From: an uncultured Gemmatimonadota bacterium
GTDB lineage: Bacteria > Gemmatimonadota > CAZMKB01 > CAZNLH01
NCBI GenBank assembly: GCA_964573995.1
Contig: CAZNLH010000001.1
Location: 112,810-176,809, forward strand
Direction of reading: 5' to 3'
DNA: 64,000 bases
Part shown: piece after piece, positions 50,328 to 64,000 of the stretch
Position numbering within the stretch: position 1 is the stretch's first letter
Layout: the number at the start of each line of letters is the position of its first letter
Position numbers and translations under genes: made by a program
Notes under the pieces: generated by a model
What the model was told of the DNA's origin: nothing
Seen by the model: the letters and a program-made list of their open reading frames with translations, nothing else
Database searches by the model: none

Positions 50328-51039
50328 CGCTGCTGTTATTCCCTGTCATTTTTAAACCATCGGCAGATGATGCCTGGATCTCGGCCTTTAACAAGGCCGC
50401 CTCTCCAGCTTCCTGCGCATCCGGGTAGTTGTCGAGGATGAACCGGCATTCTTCCAACGCCTTCTGCGTGTCATCCGCCATGGAATACGCCCTCGCCGCA
50501 TCGAGCCTCGCCTTTACACGCTGGTAATCAAAACGGGCGCTTTCGGATGCTCTGATGTAAGCAGCAGCGGCCTCGACGAATGAATTCTGATCCTCCAGGA
50601 TACATCCAAGGAGTTCATGCGCCTGATAACTCATAGGGGAACGAGTATCATATTCAGCGTCAAATTCTTTCAAGGCGTCTTCGGCCTCTTTGTATTTCTT
50701 CTCTTGGTAATAGGCCTCCGCAAGCATGTACATGGCCTCATCCCCTATCTTTGTCCCTGTGAAGTCCTTTCTGACCTTTTCAAGGTCAGAGATTGCAAGC
50801 GGATAGTTCTGTGAATCATAATCCACCTGGCCGCTCCACAAGAGGCGAGCGGCGCGCATCTCCTTGTGTGAACGATAATCCAGGTAATACAGCACCGCTC
50901 CGACAACGACGGCGACCGCGATCAGGTAGATGACTGTTTTTCTCAGGTTCTCTTGGAAAAAACGGGCCAGTTCAAACGTCGTGCTTACAAACTTGTCCTG
51001 CTTCAGTTGCTTTTTAGAAAGTCTCCTTTTGCTGCCCAT
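50320..51039 (-). CDS. Membrane-anchored TPR-repeat protein (YfgM-like).
   Basis: Basic N-terminus, one TM helix, then TPR-like repeats ('MYMLAEAYYQEKKYKEAEDALKEF'). Confidence 0.5.
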   Translation of the reverse strand: MGSKRRLSKKQLKQDKFVSTTFELARFFQENLRKTVIYLIAVAVVVGAVLYYLDYRSHKEMRAARLLWSGQVDYDSQNYPLAISDLEKVRKDFTGTKIGDEAMYMLAEAYYQEKKYKEAEDALKEFDAEYDTRSPMSYQAHELLGCILEDQNSFVEAAAAYIRASESARFDYQRVKARLDAARAYSMADDTQKALEECRFILDNYPDAQEAGEAALLKAEIQASSADGLKMTGNNSSGG

Positions 51040-51101
51040 GGCTCTCAATGCCTCCGTTGAACTTGGGAATTATCTTTCCAAGCCTGATAAAAAGACAGCA
51101 C

Positions 51102-51178: not shown

Positions 51179-51848
51179 ACCTGCATAACTTACAAAGGGT
51201 TATCGGCGTTACCTGTACTTTGTTCTGATATGCGATGCTTCAATGCGATTGACAATTATTCGTTTGCTGCTCCTTCGCATCGTTCATTCTAATTATTACC
51301 GCCAACCTTGTCAAGATCGTGCTTCCTGTCCTCATCCCGCCCGGCACTCATCGATGGAGGTCTTGGATTACCGTGTAAGCCTTTTAGAGCATCCGCGAGG
51401 GTAGCGCCGATGGGCGTGTTCGGCGACAGGACCAGCGCGTTTCACAGGGTAACATCCGCGAAATAACTTCCGGGGAATCGCACTGGGTGAGCCGGTATCC
51501 TGGAGATACCCCACCTGCGCCTGGTTAGGATGAATCGGAAGGGCTCATCCCTCATGAAGTCAATGTCCATGGCCTACCCCTTGATGACATGAACGCGGAT
51601 AAGCGAGTCATCTCGGCTGTCACATCCTGAACAGAAGTATCCTTCTCAATGGGATCGATATAAAAAAAGTATTGTGCAACCACCAAAAAGGTAATGGACA
51701 ACGGGCGTTGATCTAACGGGGATTATAAGGCCCTTTCAAGTTCCTGCTAAGGGAAAGGAGAAGAAAGTGGGGCGCAAAGCCGCACTTGGTATGCATATTG
51801 CTTAATAAAAGGTGTGAATATACCACTGTCATGCTTGCTGGAGGTCTT

Positions 51849-52994
51849 TCCGTGGCCAATATAACCTGCAATGAAGTTGGCAAGAGGGCTCCTTCCCTCC
51901 TGATCGGCTGTCTGTTTCTCTCGCACCTCTTCCTCCTGCCGCAACCTGGATGGTCGGGGGAATATCATTCCTATCGAAATGGTACGCTGTATTGTGATGA
52001 ATGCCACCTGTCCTTAGTCTCCCCTAAAGACCTTCCGAGTACGGTACCTTCCGCCGCAGGTAAGCCTGCAGGATGGGCGGGCAACCCTTACCTCCTGAGA
52101 TATGATGGCAATGAAGTCTGCCTGTCATGCCATGACGATAACCCCGGGGCGGTGGACGTGGTTGGATTCAACAGGGGGGAGAAGCCGGGGATCGTGAGGG
52201 AGGCGGGTGCGCTCAACATGGTTTCCGGCGGTTATCCATACAGTGAAGAAAACGGCCACACTCTTGGCCTGGAAACTCCTGCTCCGGGAAGCGATCCCCA
52301 ATGGATACCTTCCGGCGGCCTGAAGTGCATCGATTGCCATGATCCACACGGGGAGAACCCAAACGGGAATTCCTATCGAAACCTGGTCGCTACCCCAGGC
52401 AACACCCCCTACCCCGGTATACTGGTGACGTATTCCTCGGGGACGAATGACCCAGGCAGCGATGTCTTTGTCCGCTGCATGGGAGGCTATGACGTGTCTG
52501 ATGTGGACTTCAATGAGCCATCCCCCGGCACTTCGGCAATGGCGGCGTTCTGTGGCGGATGCCACACCGATTTCCACGGCTCCAAGGGCGGACCGGAAGT
52601 AGGCGGAGCATCGGGAGTTGGCTGGATCCGACACCCCTCGAGTGATGCGGACATCGGCCACCTGGGCGGGCGCCATTCGCGCCGCGAGGTTTTTGCGGGG
52701 GAGTGGTCGAGAAAAGAAGACTTCGTCAAGGTCATGACAGGCACGGGGAACTGGAGGCCGCAAAGCGCCTCCGAGGTTGTCGATCACACGCCGACCTGCC
52801 TTACCTGCCACAAGGCACACGGCAACCGAAACCCGTTTGGGTTGATATTCATGGGCAACAATGGGCCTGTTAATGAAGAGGGTACGCCGGGCGGCAGTTA
52901 CACCGACCTGTGCCGCCAGTGCCATGTCCAGTCGCTTCGGAGAGATCACAATAGGCAAGCCGGGCGCTTCGCGGGCCGTCGGCCCGGATCTTGA
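51849..52994 (+). CDS. OmcS-family hexaheme c-type cytochrome (candidate nanowire subunit), paralog 1.
   Basis: Six CxxCH sites in OmcS-like order and context: 'YHSY..CDECH', 'CLSCHDD', 'CIDCHDPHGE', 'FCGGCHTDFHG...WIRHPSS', 'CLTCHKAHGN', 'DLCRQCHVQ'. Recalled G. sulfurreducens OmcS has 'FHSGGVAECEGCH', 'CLNCHQ', 'CSSCHDPHGK', 'WCANCHTDIHN...LRHPAG', 'CLSCHRAHASG', 'CNKCHAKD'. GTG 51849 follows GGAGG, and a signal peptide is present. Confidence 0.7.
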   Translation, partial: SVANITCNEVGKRAPSLLIGCLFLSHLFLLPQPGWSGEYHSYRNGTLYCDECHLSLVSPKDLPSTVPSAAGKPAGWAGNPYLLRYDGNEVCLSCHDDNPGAVDVVGFNRGEKPGIVREAGALNMVSGGYPYSEENGHTLGLETPAPGSDPQWIPSGGLKCIDCHDPHGENPNGNSYRNLVATPGNTPYPGILVTYSSGTNDPGSDVFVRCMGGYDVSDVDFNEPSPGTSAMAAFCGGCHTDFHGSKGGPEVGGASGVGWIRHPSSDADIGHLGGRHSRREVFAGEWSRKEDFVKVMTGTGNWRPQSASEVVDHTPTCLTCHKAHGNRNPFGLIFMGNNGPVNEEGTPGGSYTDLCRQCHVQSLRRDHNRQAGRFAGRRPGS

Positions 52995-53018: not shown

Positions 53019-54152
53019 CTACTGATCGACTCTCGCAAGATAGTGGCACTGGTCGCATCCCACGTAATTCACGGTACCCTCGACGGGGAATGTCATGGAA
53101 AACGCCTGATCCGAGCCGTGGGCCTTGTGACAGGAGAGGCAGAAGACCCCGTTGGTAGATGCGTCCACCACGAGCCCCCCACCGTATTCCGACGCGCCGT
53201 CCACAACAAACGGCACCCTCTCTGTTCCGATGAATCCGGACCCGCTGCCGAGTTCCCAGTGGGCGGGGTTTGTCGACCCCCTGTCTTCCCCCTGGTCGAT
53301 GTGGTTCGGTGAGTTTCGTTCGCTGTCATAGGTGGGATGCCTTGAGTGAATACCGTTTCCATCCGGGTCTATGTAAGATTCTCCTGAAAAGATGTGATGA
53401 CAGTCCAGACAGATATTGGATGCCTCGCGCAACTCCTCTGTGTTCAAGGTGCCGTAAGAGACGTGTTCGCTCTCGTACTTATCGAGCCCCGAGGCCGACG
53501 GGTCCACGAGAAGACCAATCGGGGGTGTTCCATCGGGATCTGACGCCCACTGCAGGTTCCTTGGATTACCATTGCCGTGTGGATTATGGCAGTCAATGCA
53601 TGTCACCTTCTGATCCGCAGGGTCACCCCAGTGGCATCGCATGCATAGTTCCCAGCCGCTCGGAAGGTCCCTTCCAAGGTCATGTCCATTGATGTTCTGC
53701 ACCTCAGGTTCCCCGAAGAATCCAGCCGACCGCTCGGTCAGACCGTTCACGTCGTTTCCTACTACATCGGGTACGCCCGACATGTTATCGTGGCATAACA
53801 GGCAGAGGTCGAGAGGATCTGGTGCAAGCAAAAGTTCCGGGTTTGGGGTGCCTTCCCATGGAAAGCCCGAAATGGCCCCTTCTCCTGAGTAGCCACCCTC
53901 ATGGTTGTGTTGCATGCTTGCATGCATTACGTGACAGTCCGTACAAACCAGGGTCTCACCGAAATGATACGGAGTGTATCCGCCCACCTGTGGCTCATCT
54001 TCGGTCCCCCGTCCCCCCGTCTGCTTATGGATCTGGTAACCTAACAACTCTTCCCGACCCATCTGGCCTGCATTCAACTGGGCCACAGACAATTGGAAGA
54101 TAAGGGCCGAAATTACAGAGAGACAGACAATTACATCCTTGCCCGCAGACAT
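53019..54152 (-). CDS. OmcS-family multiheme c-type cytochrome, paralog 2 (7 CxxCH).
   Basis: 'CTDCHVMHASMQ', 'CLLCHDN', 'CMRCHWGDP', 'CIDCHNPHGNGNP', 'CLDCHHIFSG...IHSRHPT', 'CLSCHKAHGSD', 'CDQCHY'. Signal peptide 'MSAGKDVIVCLSVISALIFQLSVAQ'. RBS 'aaaggagga'. Confidence 0.65.
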   Translation of the reverse strand: MSAGKDVIVCLSVISALIFQLSVAQLNAGQMGREELLGYQIHKQTGGRGTEDEPQVGGYTPYHFGETLVCTDCHVMHASMQHNHEGGYSGEGAISGFPWEGTPNPELLLAPDPLDLCLLCHDNMSGVPDVVGNDVNGLTERSAGFFGEPEVQNINGHDLGRDLPSGWELCMRCHWGDPADQKVTCIDCHNPHGNGNPRNLQWASDPDGTPPIGLLVDPSASGLDKYESEHVSYGTLNTEELREASNICLDCHHIFSGESYIDPDGNGIHSRHPTYDSERNSPNHIDQGEDRGSTNPAHWELGSGSGFIGTERVPFVVDGASEYGGGLVVDASTNGVFCLSCHKAHGSDQAFSMTFPVEGTVNYVGCDQCHYLARVDQ

Positions 54153-54296
54153 GTTTCCTCCTTTCATTACGTCAGCGCGAGGCGTCTTCTAAGTTGAATC
54201 GCTGCTATCTCCTCAACGAGGGGCGATGCGAGGGGTAAGGAGGGGGAGAATCGGGGAGTACTCGAAGTCGGCCTGGGGTCTGGACCTTACCGCGGT

Positions 54297-57200
54297 CTAC
54301 TTGAAGTCGGCGCCTACACGATGACACTGGATGCAGAGATCCCTCCGCTGGTCATGGGTAAGCATCTTCGAGTAGTCACTGGAATGGGGATCGTGACATG
54401 AAGCACATGTCATCCTTTCTCCGGTGCGGGGATCGATCGCCTCACCACCTACGGGGTGTATGTGTTTCATGTCCACCGCATCCTTGTGGCACCCGTAACA
54501 CAAATCGTTCACATTGACCGGAAGGAGGTACCGAGCCTTGGAATCATGCGGGTCATGGCACTTGGTGCATCCTTCCTCTAAGGGCGCGTGGAGGTTTTTC
54601 CCGCCAAGGATTCGTGCCCTGTCGTGGCAGGTAAAACAGGTCTCATCGCCCTCCCTCGAGAGGAGGTACTTGCCGAATCCCATGTGAGGATTGTGGCAAT
54701 TTGTACATCCGCCACCCCGCGACAAGGCCTTGTGGAGGTGAGGCTGGTCCAGTTTCTTGCGAAAATCTTTATGACAGCCGAGACACAGTTCCTGGCCCTT
54801 CAACCTTGTGCCAAAGTTCAACTTGGAGGTATGACAAGTCAGGCATCCCCCCCTAAAGGGCTCATGGACTACTGGGTATAGGAGTTTTTTCCCGCCCTTT
54901 GGGACGGAATGCGGGTCGTGGCAGCGGGTACAGTCTCCCTTCCCCACGGGGAATCCGGAATGTGCCGCCTCGAACGCAGGCTCCCCGGCATCATGACAAC
55001 TCAGGCAGAGGGTTGCCCCCTTCTTTTTCAAGAGGTATTCGTTGCTCGATGTGTGGGAATCGTGACAATCCCCGCAATCGCCATCCTTATATGGTGGGTG
55101 AAGGGCCTCCGTTTTGTAACCCTTCCCGAGTCTCTCATGACAACCGAAACACAGGGAAGGCGTGCCTTCCTTGAGTAGATTCTTCACCGCTCCGGAGTGC
55201 GGGACATGGCAACTGAGGCATTCGCCCTTTGCAACGGGGGCGTGGCTGAGCGAGGTTCTCGTTATACCCCTCATCCCCTCGTGGCACCGGTAGCACAATT
55301 TTTCCCCAGGAGCACGGAGTAATTTCTCGTTGCTCGATGCATGGGGGCTGTGGCAGGCCACACAATTCCCTTTGGTGACCGGGTCGTGAACCACCTCGGC
55401 ACCGGTAAAATCGTCGTCATGACACTGTAGGCAGAGTGCACTCCCCTCTTCGACCAGGCGCGCGGGCTCCCCCTTGCGCTTGGGTTCCACATGGCATGCG
55501 TCACACAACTTATCCTCAAAGGGAGGATGAAGATTCTTTCCCAACAACTTTGGCGATGCCGAGTTGTGAGGATCGTGGCAGTCTATGCAATTCGTCCCTT
55601 CAACCGAGTATCCGAGGTGCGCATTCCTGATGTTTTCGCTGTCCACCTGGTGGCAACTCTGGCACAACTTCTTCGGTTCCGCTACGAGGTTTACGGAGAA
55701 ATCCGAGGCATGAGGGTCGTGGCAGGTCAGGCACCCCTTTTCTGTAGTCAGAGGCTGGTGAACATTCCCGGTAAGATAGTCATCCCTGTCATGGCACTTA
55801 AGGCACAAGTCCGTTCCCTTCGCCTTGAGCAGACCAGGCCCCTCGCCACCGTGTGGATCGTGGCACCCGCTGCAATTTCCCTCTACCACAGGTGTGTGGA
55901 CAGAGGGCTTCGTCATGAGTTCTTCGATCTCAGAGTGGCAGGATATGCAGAGTTCACCCTGATCCTTGACCAGGAGCCCCTTGTTGCCCGCCGCATGGGG
56001 ATTGTGGCAATCGGTACAGGCTCCTTCGACGGCGGCGGGATGAGCACCATCGCCTGAAATCTTCTCCCCTATATCTTTATGGCACTGCGTACAGAGATCA
56101 TTTCCCCCTATCTTCAACATGGAATTACCGGTCGAGGCGTGGGGTGAATGGCAGGCCGAGCACTCACCCAATTCGAATGGGCTGTGCTGATTTACCTCCT
56201 TGAGCCTGTCCACCACGTCACCATGACACTTCAGGCATATTTCCTTTTGAGGCCCAACCAGCAGGGACGGCAACTTGGAACTGTGCGGCCTGTGACAGGA
56301 CAGGCATCCCGGGTCAAGGACCGGCGGATGAGTCCCCTCCCCCTTATCGATCGCCTCGTAGATATCCTTGTGACAGGAACGACACAGATCCGGCTTCGGG
56401 GACCTCAGCAGCGGACTCGTCCCGGAACCGTGAGGGTCGTGGCAACCTGTGCAATTACCCTCCTTTAGAGGGGGGTGAACCGATTTGTCATGAAGATCCT
56501 CTTCCCTTTCGGGGTGACAAGTAAGGCACAACTCGCCCTCGTCCTCCTTCAATAGCGCCTTTCTCTTGGACACATGAGGATCGTGACAGTCGGTGCACTC
56601 TCCATCGGATGCAGGCGGGTGGATCGATTCAGACCTGAGGGACGCCTCGATCTTGGAGTGACAGGTAAGGCAGATATCCTTCACGTCCTGCCTTAGATGG
56701 ACACCCCCCTCCCCGACCGGCTCCTCGTGGCAAGCGGTGCAGTCTCCCTCGAGCAGGGGTTCATGTGCGCTCTCGTTCAGTAATGCGGGCCTTGAAGATG
56801 CGTGGGGGTTGTGACAACTGTCGCATGACAGTTCCTTTATATCGAATCCCTTGTGTCCCTTGGATTGTGCAATATCCTCTTTACCATGGCACTTTCTGCA
56901 GAGCGTCTTCTCATCAGAGACCAGGAGGCCCCCGTACGATGAAGCATGGCTCTGATGGCAAGCCCCGCAGTCCTTATCGGCGAAGGGCTGATGCAGATGG
57001 GGTTTCTCGAGTTCCCTGGCGATGTCCTCGTGGCATGAAGTGCAGATGCCCTTTCCGCCGATCGATTTCAGGAGGGATGCATTGTCTGAGGCGTGAGGAT
57101 CGTGGCAGGCGATACAATTGCCTTCCTCGACAGGTGAGTGGACGACCTTCTTGCCGGCCTCTTTTTTGATATCCTCGTGACAGTTCAGACAGAGATCGGG

Positions 57201-57422
57201 CCCCGTCCTCTTCAAGGCGAGTTTCTGCTTAAAGCCGTGTCGGGCATGGCAGGCGTCACACTTTCCCCTTTTGACGGGGTCATGAATGATCTCCTTAGAC
57301 TGGAAGGCCTTCCGTGCCTGTTTGTGGCAATCATAGCAAGTCTTACGTTGAGCAATGAGGGGCAGGACCAGTAGGTTCTCCACGGTAAAGAACAGGAAGA
57401 GCGCCCGCCTCGTGCTGCCCAT
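54297..57422 (-). CDS. Giant periplasmic multiheme cytochrome c (~42 CxxCH), a polymer of cytochrome-c7/c3-like triheme repeats.
   Basis: Signal peptide present. Regularly spaced CxxCH motifs (~42 counted by eye) in repeating 'C..CH.PH.S......L....G..LC..CH' units across the whole length. The ATG overlaps the upstream gene's stop (TAATG). Confidence 0.85.
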   Translation of the reverse strand: MGSTRRALFLFFTVENLLVLPLIAQRKTCYDCHKQARKAFQSKEIIHDPVKRGKCDACHARHGFKQKLALKRTGPDLCLNCHEDIKKEAGKKVVHSPVEEGNCIACHDPHASDNASLLKSIGGKGICTSCHEDIARELEKPHLHQPFADKDCGACHQSHASSYGGLLVSDEKTLCRKCHGKEDIAQSKGHKGFDIKELSCDSCHNPHASSRPALLNESAHEPLLEGDCTACHEEPVGEGGVHLRQDVKDICLTCHSKIEASLRSESIHPPASDGECTDCHDPHVSKRKALLKEDEGELCLTCHPEREEDLHDKSVHPPLKEGNCTGCHDPHGSGTSPLLRSPKPDLCRSCHKDIYEAIDKGEGTHPPVLDPGCLSCHRPHSSKLPSLLVGPQKEICLKCHGDVVDRLKEVNQHSPFELGECSACHSPHASTGNSMLKIGGNDLCTQCHKDIGEKISGDGAHPAAVEGACTDCHNPHAAGNKGLLVKDQGELCISCHSEIEELMTKPSVHTPVVEGNCSGCHDPHGGEGPGLLKAKGTDLCLKCHDRDDYLTGNVHQPLTTEKGCLTCHDPHASDFSVNLVAEPKKLCQSCHQVDSENIRNAHLGYSVEGTNCIDCHDPHNSASPKLLGKNLHPPFEDKLCDACHVEPKRKGEPARLVEEGSALCLQCHDDDFTGAEVVHDPVTKGNCVACHSPHASSNEKLLRAPGEKLCYRCHEGMRGITRTSLSHAPVAKGECLSCHVPHSGAVKNLLKEGTPSLCFGCHERLGKGYKTEALHPPYKDGDCGDCHDSHTSSNEYLLKKKGATLCLSCHDAGEPAFEAAHSGFPVGKGDCTRCHDPHSVPKGGKKLLYPVVHEPFRGGCLTCHTSKLNFGTRLKGQELCLGCHKDFRKKLDQPHLHKALSRGGGCTNCHNPHMGFGKYLLSREGDETCFTCHDRARILGGKNLHAPLEEGCTKCHDPHDSKARYLLPVNVNDLCYGCHKDAVDMKHIHPVGGEAIDPRTGERMTCASCHDPHSSDYSKMLTHDQRRDLCIQCHRVGADFK

Positions 57423-57916
57423 TATTTCGACCCTCCCTTGTTCCTGATCACCGTCTCCTTTCCACCCCCCCGGTTTCCATCAGGTTTCTCTTCTCCAGCC
57501 CCCTGAGCCGTTCCGGTAGGCGAGACCTTGTAATCCTTTAGTTCGAAGGAGAGGAGTGATCTCCTGAAAAAATGGGGGGCACCCTTTCCACGGAAGGCCC
57601 ACGTTTCATCCACCTTCTTGTCCTTGTCGTATACAATCACCCGAACAGCGGGGTTGTTTAACTGGTCGGATCGAGAAATGACCTCTCCCGTCTTCAGGTT
57701 TACGGCAAAGTCTGGGATGAATTCCACCGCCTCGGCGGAATAATCCGTGTCAGAGAGGTAGAATCTCTCTCCCAGTCTCACGGTGTGTTCCTCGCGAAAG
57801 TCCTTGTATACCCTGTGGGTAGCGACCAGTGTAACGTTGTCGATCTTTATTGTCCCGGCTATTGCCCGGGATATGACAACTGTAGAAATCAAGATGAGAA
57901 AGACCGTGTACTTCAT
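57422..57916 (-). CDS. Hypothetical periplasmic protein (signal peptide) inside the cytochrome operon.
   Basis: 'MKYTVFLILISTVVISRAIAG'. ATGA overlap with the upstream gene and TAATG overlap with the downstream cytochrome. Confidence 0.45.
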   Translation of the reverse strand: MKYTVFLILISTVVISRAIAGTIKIDNVTLVATHRVYKDFREEHTVRLGERFYLSDTDYSAEAVEFIPDFAVNLKTGEVISRSDQLNNPAVRVIVYDKDKKVDETWAFRGKGAPHFFRRSLLSFELKDYKVSPTGTAQGAGEEKPDGNRGGGKETVIRNKGGSK

Positions 57917-58551
57917 CGCATCTCCTCCATTCTATGAAGGGATTCCCTCCTCAGGGATTTAACGACCTCGCGAGCCATGACCTCGGTCAGCCTGTCGAGG
58001 GATGTTATCCTCCCGATCCCGAAGACCTTTTCTGTGTCGTTGCCGTTCCTGGAGTAGGATGAGGCCCAGAGGATCTTTCCGCTGCCGGCGTCGACCATCT
58101 TGACGAGCAATGATATGAAGGGGACTTCGGTGACGTTGTAGCCCTGCACCTGCCTGATCCCGTATTCAAGGACAGTCCCCTCGATGAGTGCGGACACATT
58201 CAGATCGGATGCGATCTTCCGGGTCTGCTCACTCGAGAGTTCCGAGATGAAACGAATCCTTTCAGAGGTGAGGACACCCTCTACTTCCCCGGGATCGACC
58301 ACCGAAAACTTACCTGTTTTCAACAACTCTACCGTAAAGATATCGTGAACGTGCCTGGCGGCGCCCTCCGCATCCGTCAGGTTATCGAACGGAAGTACGG
58401 CGACACGAATCTCACCATGGAGTTTGAATTCATTGCTCGTGTATACCCTTGGACTGGGCGCGCACCCGGCGACTAAAGCGGTTGCGAGGAAAACAGACAA
58501 CTTCCTAAATTTCCTGTCCTTGAGATTCATGGCGCATAATACGTGGATCAC
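57913..58551 (-). CDS. Lipoprotein with a CsgG/LpoB/DUF799-like N-terminal fold, paralog A.
   Basis: Lipobox 'LVAGC'. Motif 'EIRVAVLPFDNLTDAEGAARHVHDIFTVELLKTGKFSVVDP'. Confidence 0.45.
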   Translation of the reverse strand: MIHVLCAMNLKDRKFRKLSVFLATALVAGCAPSPRVYTSNEFKLHGEIRVAVLPFDNLTDAEGAARHVHDIFTVELLKTGKFSVVDPGEVEGVLTSERIRFISELSSEQTRKIASDLNVSALIEGTVLEYGIRQVQGYNVTEVPFISLLVKMVDAGSGKILWASSYSRNGNDTEKVFGIGRITSLDRLTEVMAREVVKSLRRESLHRMEEMR

Positions 58552-58578
58552 ACCCGGAACGAGGGTGATACCCTCTCC

Positions 58579-59226
58579 TCAATATCCTATCCGGTCGACT
58601 ATGTCTTTACACACCTTCTGGGTCATCTCTCCAAGGGTATACGTCTCCCCGAGGCTGATAATTGGGAGGTGGGGTCCTCCCTTCCTCGTGTGGCTGATCA
58701 TCCACACGACCTTTCCTGTCTCGACATCGATCAATTCAACGTCGACGGTAACGAGCGGGTACGATGTCTGTCCTATCCTCACCATCTCGTAATCTCGAAC
58801 CGTTCCCGTTATGATTCCCTGGACTTCGGCTTCGCTCCCCAGTTTCTTGATATTGTCGAGTTTCCACTCTCCTCCTGAATCTATTCCGCCGCTCAATATC
58901 CCCCTCGCCTTTTCGCGGAACTGCCCCGGCTCCACGACATCGAAACTCTTCTTGACCAGGAGTTCTGTAATCAGCGCATTGGCGACCTTCTCACCGGCCA
59001 GTCGGTCGTTGGTTAGGTTCTTAAAGGGCAAGACACCGATGGTCTCATAGTACGAGATATCGACGTCCTGGTGTATAAAGGTCCTCGGCCCACCGCAACC
59101 CATCAAACAGGCCGGGAGCAGGCAGGTCAACGATATCGTTATACGGCGCCTTAAGGTGGATACGATAATCTCTCTGGCGGCCGGCGGACCTTTCTCGCCT
59201 CTTCTCTGGTGTTCATCGGAATTCAT
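58579..59226 (-). CDS. Lipoprotein with a CsgG/LpoB/DUF799-like N-terminal fold, paralog B.
   Basis: Lipobox-like 'CLMGC'. Motif 'GVLPFKNLTNDRLAGEKVANALITELLVKKSFDVVEP', paralogous to the gene downstream. Confidence 0.45.
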   Translation of the reverse strand: MNSDEHQRRGEKGPPAAREIIVSTLRRRITISLTCLLPACLMGCGGPRTFIHQDVDISYYETIGVLPFKNLTNDRLAGEKVANALITELLVKKSFDVVEPGQFREKARGILSGGIDSGGEWKLDNIKKLGSEAEVQGIITGTVRDYEMVRIGQTSYPLVTVDVELIDVETGKVVWMISHTRKGGPHLPIISLGETYTLGEMTQKVCKDIVDRIGY

Positions 59227-59230
59227 AGCG

Positions 59231-60874
59231 CTAAAACCACTTCACAAGATTGATCCCCAGGTTGCTTATCCTTCTGTTTCCGGAGATCATCTGGGTATCA
59301 AGGCTCAAACGAAGGTTCGCGCGTTCCCTGAGCTTCAGGTTCATCTGGAAGAGGAGCCCCTCCTGGGCCCCGGAAAAGGACGTCGGCTGTGTTAAGGCCT
59401 CCCCATTGGCCCTGGACCGGGAATTTCTCCGGTTGTATATCAGGGAGAGACCCGAGCCGCCCGAAAAGAGGTAGTTCAGTGTCCCCGTAACGAGGTAATC
59501 ATGACGCCCGAAGACCCTGCGGTCGTCTTCCCTCGCTACGGTCCAGAGGGTCGTCAGGCGTGGAGCCGGCTGATAATTGAGGCTCATCTGCAAAGTCGAT
59601 GATTGGGTGTCTAACCAGGGGACCTTTTCTCCGTATGATAGTGTCCGGAGGCCGAAATCGAGCATCAGCCTTCCGGTTGGGACGGTGCGAAGATCGAGCG
59701 TCCGCCGTACCTGGAATCGTCCTGTTGTAACGCCGGGGTTTTCCGATTGTGTGATATTGTAATCGGAATTCAGGCTTATGCCGCGATAGACCTGCGCAAC
59801 CACGCTGAACAGATACCCATGTGAAGGAAAACTGCCCTCCTTGCTCCTGATGATGTATGTCCTTGTGAACGCCGCCCTCCCTTCGATCCTTTCACGAATT
59901 CTACCGTGAAGGCGTGCCTCGGCACGGAGGAAATCGGACGTCGATTCCCCTCCTTCCTGCATTATCCGGCGATAATCCCTGGAACCAGATATCGAGAGAT
60001 AATCGGTCGGCATGAACCTCATACCAGAGACTACCTCGGACAGGGAGGAGTTCTCGCTGCCCTGCCCCTCTCTCCTTATGTAATTGCCGAGGAACGAGGT
60101 GTAGCCTGACAGGCGGGCCAGCGGCTTGATCGAAGCCCGGGCACTCATGTTATTGACCATAGACTTGCCGATGAATTCCGGCCCTCCCCGATCGTCCGTG
60201 TATAGATAATCATAGTCCACCGTGAGGCTTGCCCGCCGGGGAAAGGGGATACGGGCACCAAGCCCCCCGCTTATATCCCGTATCCTGCGATTACCACTAT
60301 TGTCGACCCTGTCGACCATCTTCCTCTCCCTTAGAAGTGATCGATAATTCATGAACTTGTATTCGTATGTCATGTTGACCAGCCTGTCCACCTTGAGCAT
60401 ATCGACCCTGCCAGCGCCTGTCCCTCCACCCACCCTCTCGTTCCGGTCATATGTAACGCTGGTCACCGGTGCCTTGGGAGGCGACACGACAAGGTTAAAC
60501 CGCCTGCCCCTTCCGTGCAGTGCCGCCGGGCCGGAAGCGCTGTTGAGCCTATAGCGCGGGGAGAGATCGCCGGTGAATGTGTAATACTTCCCTGTCATGT
60601 TGGTGCGCCACCGCTGGCGGATGGCCCCTCCGGGCTGCGTACCTGCCGAATACCGCTGGAGAAAATAACTCAGGGTCAAGAGGTTTTTTGTGAAAAGGGC
60701 ATCCGCCACGGAAATATCCAGTTCCTGGTCAAAGTTTTGACTCCTCGTGTCCTCGAATCTGGTGCTCAGGTAGTCGAGGTTGAGCCGACCCCTGAAGTTC
60801 GCCTGAGAGAACAGCCCGGCGGGCTCCATGGAGAACGCCAGTAAGGCCGCAGAGGCAGACAACAGCCTCCACAT
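59231..60874 (-). CDS. Outer-membrane beta-barrel protein, a candidate porin or secretin partner of the cytochromes.
   Basis: Signal peptide 'MWRLLSASAALLAFS'. Alternating amphipathic beta-strand pattern throughout. C-terminal '...LGINLVKWF' has the OMP terminal aromatic. The track ORF extends to 60985. Confidence 0.55.
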   Translation of the reverse strand: MWRLLSASAALLAFSMEPAGLFSQANFRGRLNLDYLSTRFEDTRSQNFDQELDISVADALFTKNLLTLSYFLQRYSAGTQPGGAIRQRWRTNMTGKYYTFTGDLSPRYRLNSASGPAALHGRGRRFNLVVSPPKAPVTSVTYDRNERVGGGTGAGRVDMLKVDRLVNMTYEYKFMNYRSLLRERKMVDRVDNSGNRRIRDISGGLGARIPFPRRASLTVDYDYLYTDDRGGPEFIGKSMVNNMSARASIKPLARLSGYTSFLGNYIRREGQGSENSSLSEVVSGMRFMPTDYLSISGSRDYRRIMQEGGESTSDFLRAEARLHGRIRERIEGRAAFTRTYIIRSKEGSFPSHGYLFSVVAQVYRGISLNSDYNITQSENPGVTTGRFQVRRTLDLRTVPTGRLMLDFGLRTLSYGEKVPWLDTQSSTLQMSLNYQPAPRLTTLWTVAREDDRRVFGRHDYLVTGTLNYLFSGGSGLSLIYNRRNSRSRANGEALTQPTSFSGAQEGLLFQMNLKLRERANLRLSLDTQMISGNRRISNLGINLVKWF

Positions 60875-60881
60875 TGAGATT

Positions 60882-63032
60882 CTACCATCTCTCCTGCTCA
60901 CTTTCCCTCGTCTTGACGGCCTCTCTCTCTCCCTCAGACGGGTGATGCACGTTAAGGCTGTTTGAGGACGAATAATCACGTCCATGGCAGTCGTAACATG
61001 AAGCCTCTCTCCCTGAGTAATGTTCCTGTACCTCGCTCGGGATGGTATTCATGATGATTCCTTCTACTGAACGCGAGCCCGGTACTCCGTCTGCAGGGAT
61101 GTGACAACCGAAGCAGAAACGGCGTGTCTGCTGCGGATCGTTCAGGGTATCAGTCAACCCGCTCCAACCGTCTCGCTGATCACTGATCAGGAAGCCGTTT
61201 GGCTGAACGCCGTCATGTCCCAATGACCCGTGCGGGTTGTGACAATCGTAACATGGAAGTTTGTCACCCTTCTGGACGTAATTCGGCCAGGACAGTGCTA
61301 TGTCGTCGGACATCTTGATCTGGTGCCCTGCCCGATCGTCATTATTGATCCTCGAGTCATAATAATCTGATATCCTCCGGTTTTCTTCATCCATGCCGAC
61401 CGGCCCGTCGGGGCCATGGCACCGGAAACATAGTTCGTAATGCTCCGGAGGACCCACTTCTCCCGACCCGCTTATCTCCAAGTAAGGATACAGTAGCAGG
61501 TCGAAGGGGTTATCCGTAACGTGCGGGTCGTGACAATTGATGCAGAGCCCATTTCCGGCCTGGTCGCGAAGCGGCATGTCGCGGTCGTTCCTGTGGGGGG
61601 AAAAGTACCTCCCATCACCGAAAGTCCTCTGGTCGGTATATGCAACCATTCCGGGCCACCTCTTGCGGTTCTTGACACCTGTAATTCTTTCTCCACCGCT
61701 ATTGTACTCGAAGTATCCGGGGGAGGAGGACCCTTCCGGCAGCCGGTCTGTCTCCTGAGCCGGGTATCCCGTGGGGATGTCTCCGTGGCAACCGCCCCTG
61801 CCGGATGGATCGAAACAGAGATTGTTGGTGTTCTCACAGAACAGCCCGTAAGGAAATGGACCGCCGGTGGGATTTCCGTCTACGCTGGCGTGCATATAAT
61901 GGCACTGGGAACACTCTCCCACGGTGGGTGGGTCGGTGACCACCCTTTCCACTCCGCTCAGTGCGTCGCCATGTTGACTATCGAGGAATATCCTGCCGTA
62001 GTGGCATTGCGTGCACGTCTCTGACATCCTCTGCCCGTCTTCGTGGGGTAAAGTCTCGCTATCGTCATAGATCAGGAGGTACTTGTGCGAGGATCCATGT
62101 GCCTTGTGGCATGAACCGCAAAACGCTTCATTGTCGCTGTCGGCCGACGAGCCCGGGACCTCGGTTGGCGAAACAACCGCAACACGCGATACAAGCCCTG
62201 AAAACCAGCCATCGCCTCCAAGGTGACCGTTGCGATAGCCATCCGACATCGTCACGTCTCGTGTTGGGTGACGTAACCACTCGTTCCCAGGTCCAGTATC
62301 ACCGCTGGGGCTTCCGCCCATTTCGTGACCTCCCCCAGGGCCGTGAAACTCTCCATGACATCCCCCGCACCACCTGGATAAGCCGACCTCGTTTCCTCCG
62401 GACATCAACCGCCTGTAACGGATGTTCTCTACCGAGTAGCGGATAGATGGTGGGGTCGTCTCTATCTCCTGCACCGAGGAAGATCCGTCGTAGACCTGGC
62501 CCCGTGTTACCGTGACGAGGGCCTGGCCCTGCCCGCCAGGGTTCTCCACTAAATTACGGTAATACTGATTTCCATGAGGATCATGGCAGGATGTACACGT
62601 CAGTGTGGACGACCATGCTCCACCGGTATATCCGGGTGGACTCTCGCCCGACCCGAGGGAGTGTCGGTTTTCCTCGACTATCTGGCCGCCGCTCGTAAAA
62701 CTTCCAGCGGCCGATTCGTATCCGACAGGGTCCTCTACGTTGGGGGCGTTAGGGTTGCTGCCGTCATGACAATTGAGGCACAACTGATTCGTCGTCTGAT
62801 CGATGATCAATCTCTCAAAGGGCCCGCCGGGTTCCGATCCGGGTGGGATTTCCCCGTTTTGCGAGTAGTGCATTGTATGACAATCCGAGCAGAGGAGGCC
62901 ATCGTGTCCCAACTCGCTATCGGCCGACAGGCCTTTGCATCCCAAGGCTACATACCAAAGGAGCATAGTGAAGGACCAGGCGAATACCCAGTTGTATGTG
63001 AAATAAGGGTGAAAGGATGATCCGTGAATCAT
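60882..63032 (-). CDS. Doubled OmcS-family cytochrome: two tandem hexaheme OmcS-like modules (12 CxxCH), possibly a lipoprotein.
   Basis: Module 1: 'CSDCHTMHYS', 'QLCLNCHDGSNP', 'CTSCHDPHGNQ', 'WCGGCHGEFHG...WLRHPTRD', 'CGSCHKAHGSS', 'CTQCHYG'. Module 2: 'CSQCHYMHAS', 'CINCHDPHVTDNP', 'CFRCHGPDG', 'CYDCHNPHGS', 'CFGCHIP', 'CYDCHGRDYS'. The N-terminal hydrophobic segment ends in '...VALGC'. Confidence 0.7.
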   Translation of the reverse strand: MIHGSSFHPYFTYNWVFAWSFTMLLWYVALGCKGLSADSELGHDGLLCSDCHTMHYSQNGEIPPGSEPGGPFERLIIDQTTNQLCLNCHDGSNPNAPNVEDPVGYESAAGSFTSGGQIVEENRHSLGSGESPPGYTGGAWSSTLTCTSCHDPHGNQYYRNLVENPGGQGQALVTVTRGQVYDGSSSVQEIETTPPSIRYSVENIRYRRLMSGGNEVGLSRWCGGCHGEFHGPGGGHEMGGSPSGDTGPGNEWLRHPTRDVTMSDGYRNGHLGGDGWFSGLVSRVAVVSPTEVPGSSADSDNEAFCGSCHKAHGSSHKYLLIYDDSETLPHEDGQRMSETCTQCHYGRIFLDSQHGDALSGVERVVTDPPTVGECSQCHYMHASVDGNPTGGPFPYGLFCENTNNLCFDPSGRGGCHGDIPTGYPAQETDRLPEGSSSPGYFEYNSGGERITGVKNRKRWPGMVAYTDQRTFGDGRYFSPHRNDRDMPLRDQAGNGLCINCHDPHVTDNPFDLLLYPYLEISGSGEVGPPEHYELCFRCHGPDGPVGMDEENRRISDYYDSRINNDDRAGHQIKMSDDIALSWPNYVQKGDKLPCYDCHNPHGSLGHDGVQPNGFLISDQRDGWSGLTDTLNDPQQTRRFCFGCHIPADGVPGSRSVEGIIMNTIPSEVQEHYSGREASCYDCHGRDYSSSNSLNVHHPSEGEREAVKTRESEQERW

Positions 63033-63036
63033 TTAA

Positions 63037-64000
63037 TCATTGCTTATTGTTAGGTCTATCCGTTACCGGCACCTTGAAGGCCTGAAACCGCGCAATTCCC
63101 TTTTCCAGGATAAACAACCTCCCTCTTGATCCGAACGCGATATCGAGTGGGAAAAAGAGTTTCCCTGGCTCGGTCCCCATTTCACCATACTCTTTCACGA
63201 AGGTTCCATCCTCCGAGTATACCTTTACAGCATGCTGGAAAGTGTCCACGATCCACAACTTGCCCCTTGGTCCAACCGCTCCTGCTATGGGGAACGAGAA
63301 TTTACCCGCGCTTGAACCGTGAAGACCAAAGTGATTGACGAGGCGCCCATCCCGGCCTATTACATGAACGGCATATCCCCTCGAAGAGATCAGGATCGTT
63401 TCTCCTCCACGCGCTCCCTGCACTACATCTTGGAGTGCCACCCCCTCATTCTCCTCCTTGGGGAAGGTGTAAAACAGGCCGGTATTTCTACTGTCCATAT
63501 CCAGCCGCATAACGTCCCTCCCGAAACGACCCGCGACGAGGAGCCTGCCCCCCGAGTCAAAGCCCATACCGCCGGGGGAAAATCGTCCCCTTGACGATGA
63601 CTTCAGGTCTATGGGCTCCATGCCCACTTGGTCCCTGCCCACAGACCATATCCTGGGCATGTCCTGCTCCCCGATGACGAGTGTGCCGTTCCCGGCGACG
63701 GCCAATTTAAAGGGAATCCTCAGCGTCCTGTCCAGGCGCAACTTGTGCAGGTACCGGCCTTCCTGATCGTAGACGATTACCTGGCGCCTACCCCTGTCAG
63801 AGATGTAGACCTCGTTGCGAATGGTGTCGACTGCAATAGCGCCGGGCTTCAAGAGCGGCTCATCATGTTCCGCTTCTTCTACCGAGAATAAGAAATCCCA
63901 CCCCGACCCGCCCCCGGTTCCTCCTCCAGCCGTAACGCCACTACCCGCCAGGATGAACAACAGTAGAATCAGCACGAGCCTTACGGCCTCTCTTTTCCTC
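63037..64000 (-). CDS. NHL-repeat beta-propeller protein. The 5' end probably lies beyond the window.
   Basis: Repeated NHL-like blades: 'AIAVDTIRNEVYISDRGRRQVIVYD', 'GMGFDSGGRLLVAGRFGRDVMRLD', 'LDIAFGSRGRLFILEKGIARFQAF'. The ORF is open to the window edge upstream of GTG 63975. Confidence 0.6.
   Translation of the reverse strand, partial: RKREAVRLVLILLLFILAGSGVTAGGGTGGGSGWDFLFSVEEAEHDEPLLKPGAIAVDTIRNEVYISDRGRRQVIVYDQEGRYLHKLRLDRTLRIPFKLAVAGNGTLVIGEQDMPRIWSVGRDQVGMEPIDLKSSSRGRFSPGGMGFDSGGRLLVAGRFGRDVMRLDMDSRNTGLFYTFPKEENEGVALQDVVQGARGGETILISSRGYAVHVIGRDGRLVNHFGLHGSSAGKFSFPIAGAVGPRGKLWIVDTFQHAVKVYSEDGTFVKEYGEMGTEPGKLFFPLDIAFGSRGRLFILEKGIARFQAFKVPVTDRPNNKQ

Follow-up and report, generated by a model that had tools for sequence, protein, structure and literature searches.

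We consider it fairly probable that four envelope genes lying between two multiheme cytochrome genes constitute the outer-membrane (OM) core of an omcS-companion (osc) cluster of divergent and reduced form, which would putatively export or mount an OmcS-like cytochrome. The initial annotation of this DNA had offered two readings, a conduit for electrons across the outer membrane and a dedicated secretion or assembly channel. The second is the best supported, as the content and position of the cassette appear homologous to OscE/F/G, with related genes present in 50 of 61 OmcS-anchored loci.

Gene order and neighboring cytochromes

All four genes are on the minus strand of the window (the whole 64-kb stretch of DNA that was analysed), flanked by cytochrome genes of 12 and 42 hemes, with coordinates as originally given. 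They encode an OM beta-barrel of 547 aa (59231..60874), lipoprotein 1 of 215 aa (58579..59226), lipoprotein 2 of 212 aa if read from GTG (57913..58551), and p164, a secreted all-beta protein of 164 aa (57422..57916). The barrel gene follows the 12-heme cytochrome gene after 7 nt and is separated from lipoprotein 1 by 4 nt; the two lipoprotein genes are 27 nt apart, or 48 nt if the likely ATG start of lipoprotein 2 at 58530 (205 aa) is taken; lipoprotein 2 and p164 share a 4-nt overlap (ATGA), and p164 overlaps the 42-heme cytochrome gene by 1 nt. This order is repeated in independent contigs at 48-65% protein identity (L001, L003, L091, L092) and at lower identity in L002, L006, L086 and L089, and a chance arrangement is thereby ruled out. 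It is kept from about 65% to about 34% identity, as well as in canonical OmcS loci, and every context examined for relatives of at least 34% identity is a cytochrome context.

The 716-aa cytochrome with 12 CXXCH motifs (60882..63032, minus strand) had been described as a doubled OmcS-like protein. Its first six hemes (residues 48-340) are indeed collinear with the OmcS-family HMM (E 1.8e-12, four collinear segments within residues 22-324), but the second six are spaced differently and the second half of the protein resembles the first only weakly. The spacing of the first six hemes is common to a 402-aa, six-heme OmcS-like cytochrome (51786..52994, plus strand, convergent with the operon; OmcS-family HMM E 4.9e-10), and a third OmcS-like cytochrome, of 382 aa and seven hemes, is encoded at 53019..54167 on the minus strand (E 2e-9). 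The CxxCH-x-x-H histidine equivalent to His16 of OmcS, found in 121 of 127 OmcS-family members, is retained in the 716-aa (CSDCHTMH) and 382-aa (CTDCHVMH) proteins and is missing from the 402-aa protein (CDECHLSL). No window cytochrome matches the PDB sequence of OmcS in a plain phmmer search.

Directly downstream of the cassette, the 1041-aa cytochrome (54297..57422, minus strand), a likely counterpart of OscI, carries 42 CXXCH motifs in an array that includes 22 paired-CXXCH stretches and DmsE-family modules; it scores 456 bits against the DmsE-family decaheme model and 391 bits against the GSU2203 family, in ten stretches each. Unlike the other window cytochromes, it has no collinear match to the OmcS-family HMM. 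At the opposite end, a 312-aa NHL-repeat beta-propeller protein (63037..63975, minus strand; Pfam NHL and DUF5128) reaches the window edge with its upstream end. In L091 and L001 the DNA farther upstream holds two additional NHL genes together with a six-heme OmcS-like gene of 340-350 aa, so the window end evidently cuts the cluster.

The remaining cassette member, p164, is clade-specific: it has only 4 database homologs, and is present in L001, L003, L006, L091 and L092 and in 0 of 78 OmcS-anchored loci. Its hydrophobic N-terminus precedes nine strands in the AF2 model (core pLDDT about 85-93 across most blocks) and a disordered C-terminal tail. It has no match in Pfam or NCBIfam, and neither a fold search (nothing with E < 0.18) nor a sequence search (best E 0.37) of the PDB returned anything significant; by hhalign it is unrelated to the lipoprotein domain (Prob 0.5).

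Correspondence with the osc cluster

The osc cluster of Geobacter sulfurreducens was described by Shen et al. (2025, Cell Chem Biol 32:239), with OscE/F/G as the proposed secretion channel; PMC13194489 equates oscC and oscI with GSU2501 and GSU2495, and the published genetics that it summarizes assign OscE/F/G to OmcS secretion. The earlier premise that the export route of OmcS is not known thus appears outdated, going by the accounts of this cluster in PMC13194489 and bioRxiv 10.1101/2025.10.22.684050. The latter states that most OmcE and OmcS regions contain large beta-barrels and describes a porin-mounted model, and one review calls the mechanism of OmcS secretion and anchoring 'still speculative' (PMC12307469).

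We collected 78 genome loci anchored by OmcS sequence alone, the anchor being verified against PDB 6EF8; G. sulfurreducens itself is absent among them. Co-occurrence was counted in the 61 loci whose flank spans 7 kb or more. The initial annotation had named the lack of homologs beside OmcS-like genes as a possible refutation, but 50 of these loci encode a relative of the barrel and, after it, relatives of the lipoproteins, the canonical trio being a barrel of ~730-790 aa, a lipoprotein of ~195 aa and a two-domain lipoprotein of ~365-430 aa, with a median of 1.5 kb between the OmcS-family gene and the barrel. In Geomonas oryzae (L077) a Rotamase_2 prolyl isomerase comes next after the barrel and lipoproteins, and then a 26-heme cytochrome. 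The barrel and lipoprotein sizes agree with those published, OscE, OscF and OscG having been modeled over 701, 169 and 367 residue pairs according to the supplement of PMC13194489, and on gene order, locus-tag arithmetic and these matching sizes the canonical genes probably correspond to OscE/F/G.

By sequence comparison, we show here homology and synteny of the cassette with canonical OmcS loci. Like the osc cluster, whose module is closely linked to OmcS-family genes, the window combines a propeller, an OmcS-family cytochrome, a barrel, a PelC-like lipoprotein, a second one, and a very large multiheme cytochrome. The depth of the relation differs by part: it is detected at profile level for the barrel, by pairwise phmmer for the lipoproteins, and by iterated jackhmmer for the giant cytochrome, which is strongly matched from the 26-heme cytochrome of Geomonas oryzae, and for the NHL protein, which is homologous to the one encoded just upstream of omcS (from L077:8774-9850, E 4.8e-69). 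The differences are nonetheless substantial. At 547 aa the window barrel lacks a central insertion of ~200-290 aa that is present in the osc barrels (about 700-790 aa), both window lipoproteins are single-domain where osc pairs a single-domain protein with one that carries two domains in tandem, and p164 is an addition. The adjacent cytochrome has 12 hemes and only distant similarity to OmcS, and the giant cytochrome has 42 hemes against 26 in the canonical one. Neither a prolyl isomerase (OscH) nor a YNCE/lactonase-type propeller (OscD) was found in the 64-kb window or the related loci. The only named close relative is from Candidatus Glassiibacteriota, whereas osc belongs to Desulfuromonadia.

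Barrel and PelC-like lipoproteins

The 547-aa protein begins with a signal-like helix and ends in ...VKWF, in keeping with the KWF terminus reported earlier; NCBI calls it from an alternative TTG start, as a protein of 543 aa (P0001). The suggested strand count yields 28 strands (DSSP on the AF2 model, pLDDT 78.9), and modeling shows here a predicted fold of the large OM beta-barrel class. An alignment of the wider barrel family (A2) matches the canonical ~740-aa barrels end to end in hhalign (Prob 99.2, E 2.4e-19, 509 columns), a score to be read against a reversed control of Prob 86.5 and E 4.6e-6, beta-barrel profiles being inflated. The narrow alignment of the window clade (A1) reaches only Prob 59.6, and in the opposite direction an HMM of the canonical barrels misses the one in the window; homology to the canonical barrels consequently hangs on intermediate sequences. 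By position and profile, it is a probable OscE counterpart.

Among the comparisons proposed for the barrel, a Foldseek search of the PDB placed MtrB first (6r2q_B, E 1.3e-8, TMq 0.51, 10% identity). TonB-dependent receptors, FimD/PapC ushers and LptD follow; such other large barrels come close behind, at 7-12% identity, and the MtrB match is accordingly one of size class, not family. It nevertheless bears on the conduit reading, in which a barrel of Mtr/Pcc type permanently sheathes a heme wire and shields the electrons crossing the OM, exporting no filament subunit, with the lipoproteins only stabilizing or docking. The wire would be either the 12-heme protein or a DmsE/MtrA-like module within the 42-heme one. 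MtrB of MtrCAB (PDB 6R2Q) is likewise a very large barrel encoded beside DmsE/MtrA-module multiheme cytochromes, its 26 strands are close to the 28 of the model, and here the gene for the DmsE/MtrA-like 42-heme protein overlaps the cassette. We know, however, of no described Mtr or Pcc system with PelC-like lipoproteins. The association of the cassette with OmcS-family genes in most OmcS-anchored loci, and the genetic assignment of OscE/F/G to OmcS secretion summarized in PMC13194489, also argue against a simple conduit, which we regard as unlikely, if well worth keeping in mind. A filament base mounted in the barrel would in effect be a conduit too, so the two readings overlap.

Lipoprotein 1 (...CLMGC, motif TIGVLPFKNLTN) and lipoprotein 2 (lipobox LVAGC, motif RVAVLPFDNLTD) are paralogs, as the initial annotation held (phmmer E 3.7e-19, 26% identity). 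Both match canonical lipoproteins with phmmer E values from ~1e-19 down to 1e-28. Lipoprotein 1 is OscF-like: it matches the single-domain lipoproteins of ~195 aa encoded after the barrel in OmcS loci (E ~1e-19 to 1e-25), and its median score is 75 bits with OscF-type domains and 33 bits with OscG domain 2. Lipoprotein 2 occupies the position of OscG, where canonical proteins have the domain in two tandem copies, yet it too scores higher with OscF-type than with OscG-type domains, and is therefore at most a putative one-to-one ortholog of OscG.

In Pfam, lipoprotein 1 exceeds the gathering scores of LpoB (25.6 against 22.3, E 1.3e-5) and CsgG (22.0 against 20.8, E 1.1e-4); lipoprotein 2 exceeds that of CsgG (30.1, E 3.8e-7) and falls just under that of TolB_N (21.5 against 22.4). 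These matches, and the name 'TolB-like protein' that homologs carry at JGI, would suit a generic envelope-maintenance module of LpoB-type peptidoglycan synthase activators or TolB-like proteins alongside an unrelated porin, beside cytochromes by chance. The NCBIfam LpoB equivalog, however, scores 20.6 bits where 110.55 are required. The barrel family is also very rare (103 representatives in 1.84 billion proteins) and is confined to cytochrome contexts among those examined, a multiheme cytochrome adjoining the barrel in every barrel-anchored context (the window, L001, L002, L003, L006, L086, L087, L091 and L092); the module is thus not widespread without cytochromes, the other refutation anticipated at the outset, and both outcomes favor a module dedicated to cytochromes. 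With gene order also conserved over such distances and in canonical OmcS loci, the co-occurrence data refute a generic module, and we give it practically no credence.

The comparison with CsgG suggested earlier has some basis, given the Pfam scores and extracellular fiber subunits as putative cargo. CsgG, though, is itself a nine-copy membrane channel, whereas the window has a separate 28-strand barrel; the window lipoproteins (~170 aa mature) cover only positions 7-173 or 11-144 of the 210 in the CsgG profile and are too short for CsgG membrane hairpins; and no CsgE/CsgF-like partners were recognized. A lipoprotein family profile built from cytochrome-context members only matches PelC far more strongly (9h80_C, 5t11, 5t10 and 5t0z, E 7.6e-10 to 2.5e-8) than a broader profile matches CsgG structures (E 0.25-0.75, not significant). 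On these profile scores PelC is shown here to be the nearest relative that the lipoproteins have among solved structures, and CsgG no longer stands as the best analogue.

In the account given in PMC12141448, a PelC 12-mer ring sits on the PelB barrel. The PelC-PelB system (PDB 9H80, 5T10, 5T11, 5T0Z) resembles the window in encoding small lipid-anchored proteins beside an OM barrel, and the likely common principle is a lipoprotein ring at the periplasmic rim that guides a polymer into the barrel. An actual Pel-like gate, exporting a matrix polymer and placed among cytochrome genes by chance, would account for the PelC kinship and for the most distant relatives of lipoprotein 2, which have Pel-like neighborhoods: P0045 (33% identity) has a TPR protein on one side and a GAF-GGDEF protein on the other, and P0048 (28% identity) adjoins a GAF-domain protein. 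Yet the cluster has no TPR-porin, glycosyltransferase, deacetylase or GGDEF/GAF genes, and pel biosynthesis genes are absent; the 28-strand barrel has no TPR domain, and the fold search showed no kinship to PelB; and the closer relatives examined, down to 34% identity, are all in cytochrome contexts. Such a gate is close to refuted and, in our judgment, very improbable. The putative cargo would be a heme protein instead of a cationic polysaccharide, and a pair of paralogous lipoproteins takes the place of a single subunit. A PelC-like ring beneath a separate barrel would fit these observations.

A putative export route for an OmcS-like cytochrome

Returning to the osc-type secretion channel, we suggest that the 547-aa protein would serve as an OscE-type barrel with some 28 strands and the two lipoproteins as PelC-like counterparts of OscF and OscG, which may assemble into a lipid-anchored ring at its periplasmic rim, as PelC does on PelB. 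Heme-loaded OmcS-like subunits could then be funneled through ring and barrel, to be polymerized or mounted at the cell surface, with the 42-heme OscI-like cytochrome possibly feeding in electrons on the side of the periplasm. The NHL propellers and p164 would be accessory factors, and might in this lineage stand in for the absent OscH chaperone and OscD propeller. A system of this kind is already known from the OmcS nanowires of Geobacter; what would be new is only its reduced variant, from an uncultured lineage.

The gene cluster and its cytochromes

The cluster is read on the minus strand from an NHL-repeat propeller gene adjoining the window edge (63037-63975), through a 716-aa cytochrome with 12 CXXCH motifs (60882-63032), to four envelope genes, hereafter the cassette: a 547-aa barrel with the C-terminus KWF (59231-60874), lipoprotein 1 (215 aa, 58579-59226), lipoprotein 2 (212 aa, 57913-58551), and p164 (164 aa, 57422-57916), whose N-terminus is signal-like. 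Next come the 42-heme protein, a cytochrome of 1041 aa and 42 CXXCH motifs (54297-57422, minus strand), and, beyond a 129-nt gap, a 382-aa seven-heme cytochrome on the same strand; a 402-aa six-heme cytochrome (51786-52994, plus strand) is convergent with this operon. The initial annotation had described a packed four-gene envelope cassette between cytochrome genes, and this description is borne out: the genes lie at these positions, the junctions are tight (gaps of 7, 4 and 27 nt, overlaps of 4 and 1 nt), and the two lipoproteins are paralogs (E 3.7e-19). Scans of the sequence for promoter-like and terminator-like matches returned a background level of hits, with no enrichment.

None of the 716-, 382- and 402-aa cytochromes matched OmcS in a plain phmmer search against the PDB, and an OmcS-family HMM, built from 126 OmcS-family ORFs, was therefore needed. 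It recovered the 716-aa (E 1.8e-12), 382-aa (2e-9) and 402-aa (4.9e-10) proteins, with collinear heme segments, and gave no match to the 42-heme protein. As judged from sequence, the likeness of the window cytochromes to OmcS is distant; by the HMM, an OmcS-family gene lies directly beside the cassette. The 716- and 382-aa proteins, like 121 of 127 OmcS-family members, keep a histidine three residues past the first heme motif (CxxCH-x-x-H), which we take to be the equivalent of OmcS His16, ligating the heme of a neighboring subunit. Such an inter-subunit heme-ligating histidine exists in OmcS (PMC12307469). The 42-heme protein is among the top jackhmmer matches from the 26-heme protein of the Geomonas oryzae locus (L077), and on this basis is of the type of OscI, the large multiheme cytochrome of the published omcS-companion (osc) cluster of Geobacter sulfurreducens. 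The NHL protein of the window is likewise homologous to the NHL protein upstream of omcS.

The 402-aa protein resembles the first half of the 716-aa protein in heme spacing but has no conserved histidine after the first heme motif (CDECHLSL), and may represent a paralog that does not polymerise or a unit that terminates a filament. The N-terminus of the 716-aa protein (62940-63032) reads ...WYVALGCKG, which could be a non-canonical lipobox that would make this 12-heme cytochrome a lipoprotein, unlike OmcS. In a related contig, six-frame translation of L003:11154-14282 gives an uninterrupted ORF of ~1040 aa, a homolog of the 42-heme cytochrome, where the deposited calls are several small minus-strand genes; this looks like a calling error on a heme-repeat gene.

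The full gene order is repeated in the contigs that carry close homologs (L001, L003, L091 and L092). Its upstream half consists of an NHL protein, a cytochrome of ~340-360 aa (six CXXCH motifs, counted in L001 and L003), two more NHL proteins and a ~700-aa cytochrome (12 motifs where counted), and its downstream half of the barrel, two lipoproteins, a small protein and, where called (L001 and L091), a ~1040-aa cytochrome. Two of the NHL genes and the six-heme OmcS-like gene, of 340-350 aa, thus precede the last NHL gene in these relatives (L091:18-4364, L001:3618-7877), and so the window must cut the cluster at its upstream end (63037-64000). The organism is known only from metagenomes, and among its close relatives just one has a name, Candidatus Glassbacteria of the phylum Candidatus Glassiibacteriota, with a single homolog at 61% identity on which the lineage assignment depends. 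Beyond the cytochrome cluster, at 48162-51048, the window encodes a 242-aa TPR protein followed by a 721-aa glycoside hydrolase of family GH57; the same order, a TPR/YfiO-like protein (230 aa) and then a 647-aa unannotated ORF truncated by the contig end, is found in the Glassbacteria-like contig L091 (L091:14703-17342), which suggests that synteny with that contig is conserved beyond the cytochrome cluster.

The association of cytochrome, barrel and two lipoproteins is kept in the more distant contigs L002, L006, L086, L087 and L089, with lipoprotein 2 at 39% identity in L002 and 34% in L006, and with L086 and L087 belonging to a separate barrel subfamily. Departures from the cytochrome context are confined to the remotest lipoprotein relatives, at 33% and 28% identity. 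A generic envelope module, whose barrel and lipoproteins would occur widely away from cytochromes, is nearly excluded by this co-occurrence together with the gene content.

Comparison with the osc cluster

The initial annotation took the export route of OmcS to be not known, a statement that is out of date given the osc cluster, in which oscC is GSU2501, oscI is GSU2495 and oscJ is GSU2494 (Shen et al. 2025, as summarised in PMC13194489), and given the view, put forward in a 2025 preprint, that OmcS is mounted on the outer membrane via a porin-like pathway (bioRxiv 10.1101/2025.10.22.684050). That preprint also places large barrels in most OmcE and OmcS regions, and the supplement of PMC13194489 includes models of OscE/OscF/OscG over 701/169/367 residue pairs. 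PMC12307469 and the preprint still call the outer-membrane crossing of cytochrome nanowires speculative.

For comparison, 78 loci from species-representative genomes were retrieved with OmcS (50-67% identity) and their six-frame ORFs searched; the query had been checked against PDB 6EF8, with 407/407 residues aligned and one mismatch, which was corrected. These canonical loci include Geomonas, Citrifermentans and Anaeromyxobacter isolates as well as MAGs labelled Nitrospirota, Rokubacteria, Acidobacteriota, Myxococcales and others. The genome-contig scan with OmcS did not return G. sulfurreducens itself, its closest locus having 67% identity; the collection lacks or masks either the whole genome or this part of it. 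The Geomonas oryzae locus runs NHL protein, OmcS homolog, YNCE/lactonase-type propeller, 744-aa barrel, 197-aa lipoprotein, 365-aa two-domain lipoprotein, 598-aa PPIC-type prolyl isomerase and 26-heme cytochrome, in agreement with the D-E-F-G-H-I order and the protein sizes published for osc.

A diverse alignment of window-type barrels (A2) matches an ORF of ~730-790 aa downstream of omcS in many of the 78 loci, and an HMM made from these ORFs finds a barrel in nearly all lipoprotein-bearing loci. The window lipoproteins match the two ORFs directly after the canonical barrel (E ~1e-19 down to 1e-28), one of ~195 aa and the other of ~365-430 aa with two tandem domain copies. The co-occurrence check that accompanied the initial annotation came out in favor of a cytochrome-dedicated module, with barrel and lipoproteins accompanying OmcS in 50 of the 61 loci that have at least 7 kb of flank, at a median gap of 1.5 kb from the OmcS-family gene to the barrel; the other 11 are mostly loci without downstream sequence or extra OmcS-paralog loci of MAGs with more than one locus.

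By hhalign, A2 aligns with the canonical barrels end to end (Prob 99.2, E 2.4e-19, 509 columns; reversed-sequence control E 4.6e-6), while the narrow alignment of the window clade alone reaches only Prob 59.6, and we therefore regard the link as real but distant. The canonical-barrel HMM did not recover the window barrel. On this alignment the window gene would encode an OscE-type large outer-membrane barrel directly downstream of a cytochrome gene. The canonical barrels match the window-type profile at both ends and carry between them a central insertion of ~200-290 residues that the window barrel lacks. In the Geomonas oryzae barrel (L077, 12827-15061) the insertion spans residues ~270-550, with a weak, sub-threshold galactose-binding-like match (F5_F8_type_C_2, E 8e-4).

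The barrel itself has no Pfam or NCBIfam family, only a sub-threshold OMP_b-brl match. Word-index search returned only 13 homologs (48-56% identity), of 1.84 billion representative proteins searched exhaustively with a profile, 103 reached E <= 0.001, nearly all of 510-590 aa, and a metagenome scan with a narrower barrel alignment (A5) added just two short loci; the family is rare and specialised. The predicted structure (mean pLDDT 78.9) has 28 strands by DSSP. Foldseek ranked MtrB first (TMq 0.51, 10% identity), with TonB-dependent receptors, the FimD and PapC ushers and LptD close behind, all at 7-12% identity; by size the modelled barrel thus ranks with the largest barrels formed by one chain, and it cannot be assigned to any particular known family. 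Its C-alpha diameter would be ~5.5 nm by the standard barrel-radius formula applied to the strand count, not measured on the model, an estimate wide enough for a folded heme protein. The MtrB match, together with DmsE-like modules in the 42-heme protein, argues for the main rival explanation, an insulated Mtr/Pcc-like conduit, which we judge unlikely on balance. Export and conduit would not be mutually exclusive if the base of the filament stays in the barrel.

Lipoproteins, PelC and p164

Lipoprotein 1 scores above the Pfam thresholds for both LpoB and CsgG, and lipoprotein 2 above that for CsgG (PF03783: 22.0 and 30.1 bits, respectively, for a cut-off of 20.8). These matches cover only positions 7-173 and 11-144 of the 210 in the CsgG profile. 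CsgG chains have 262 aa, whereas the mature window lipoproteins have ~170 aa and are accompanied by a separate barrel gene; the full-length CsgG architecture, including the channel-forming membrane hairpins, is not found in either lipoprotein. Against the LpoB equivalog (NCBIfam TIGR02722), lipoprotein 1 scores 20.6 bits for a cut-off of 110.55 and lipoprotein 2 has no match.

A profile restricted to lipoproteins in cytochrome context (A7) matches PelC structures clearly (9h80_C, E 7.6e-10; 5t11, 2.6e-9; 5t10, 4.6e-9; 5t0z, 2.5e-8) and GNA1162 at E 0.016. CsgG structures reach E 0.25-0.75 with a broader lipoprotein profile (A6), and with A7 none has an E-value below 1. Twelve PelC lipoproteins assemble into a ring that sits on the PelB barrel at its periplasmic rim (PMC12141448), and by analogy PelC-PelB is the closest mechanistic precedent for a set of lipoproteins with a barrel. 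Export of a Pel-like polysaccharide, which this likeness might bring to mind, is nearly excluded by gene content and co-occurrence: the window cluster contains no TPR-porin of the PelB kind, no PelD-like GAF/GGDEF gene and no glycosyltransferase gene, and partners with TPR and GAF-GGDEF or GAF domains are confined to the two most distant relatives of lipoprotein 2, both in Pel-like arrangements. One of these (P0045, 33% identity, L088:731-4450) is flanked by a TPR protein on one side and a GAF-GGDEF protein on the other, and the second (P0048, 28% identity, L090:1-3207) adjoins a GAF-domain protein; their contexts mark the meeting point of the cytochrome-linked lipoprotein family and true PelC.

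Within the osc comparison, lipoprotein 1 matches the ~195-aa proteins that follow canonical barrels (E ~1e-19 to 1e-25), with a median of 75 bits against 50 OscF-type domains, and from these scores is a putative OscF-type single-domain lipoprotein encoded after the barrel. At the OscG position, canonical loci encode a protein made up of two PelC/LpoB-like domains in tandem (L077:15631-16728 and equivalents in about 42 OmcS-anchored loci). Lipoprotein 2 has a single copy of the domain, in place of the two-domain OscG layout of ~367 aa, and both window lipoproteins score best against OscF-type domains. Together with the one in OscF, this gives a canonical cluster three domains of the type for each barrel, where the window has two.

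No match to p164 was found in Pfam or NCBIfam, nor any significant sequence match (best E 0.37) or fold match in the PDB. Its model has an all-beta core and a disordered tail, and it is found only in the window clade, with no relative in the canonical loci. It is unrelated to the lipoprotein domain, and we rejected the idea that p164 arose by divergence of a third such domain or by separation from OscG.

A probable reduced osc-type module

Beyond its two single-domain lipoproteins, insertion-free barrel and clade-specific p164, the window differs from osc in lacking OscH and OscD. Jackhmmer searches from the Geomonas oryzae PPIase and YNCE/lactonase-type propeller found neither a prolyl isomerase nor such a propeller anywhere in the window, nor in L001, L002, L003 and L006, whereas the same searches gave 50 and 63 matches, respectively, in the OmcS loci. 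NHL-type propellers are present in place of OscD in the window-type clusters.

Homology of the cassette to the osc module is very probable. We also favor, with less assurance, the whole functional statement that OmcS-like cytochromes are exported or mounted by the cassette as a reduced module of osc type, in which the barrel and a PelC-like ring would together form the module and the adjacent 42-heme protein would feed it with electrons. A bolder extension, which we regard as a long shot, is that this lineage, a relative of Candidatus Glassiibacteriota, has a minimal cytochrome-filament exporter: one dispensing with the prolyl-isomerase chaperone and OscD, in which both PelC-like lipoproteins form a hetero-oligomeric ring below a 28-strand barrel free of the insertion, with the new small beta protein p164 in an adaptor or chaperone role, and the 12-heme protein as a fused subunit giving a filament type not yet seen. 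If that were true, it would define an irreducible core for nanowire secretion, made up of propeller, barrel, PelC-like ring and giant periplasmic heme wire.

As a reduced version of osc, the cluster would show what such a module can do without (prolyl isomerase, OscD propeller, insertion in the barrel and second OscG domain) and what it retains (the barrel, PelC-like lipoproteins, an NHL propeller and a giant multiheme cytochrome), thereby narrowing the targets for structural work. The relationship to PelC would, by analogy, supply a specific architecture open to testing, in which lipoproteins ring the rim of a barrel, and for which a solved precedent exists. Since this kind of system was published in 2025, the cluster opens no new field; what differs is the variant architecture. 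Its value is that it delimits the core that is conserved and puts forward PelBC as a model architecture that can be tested.
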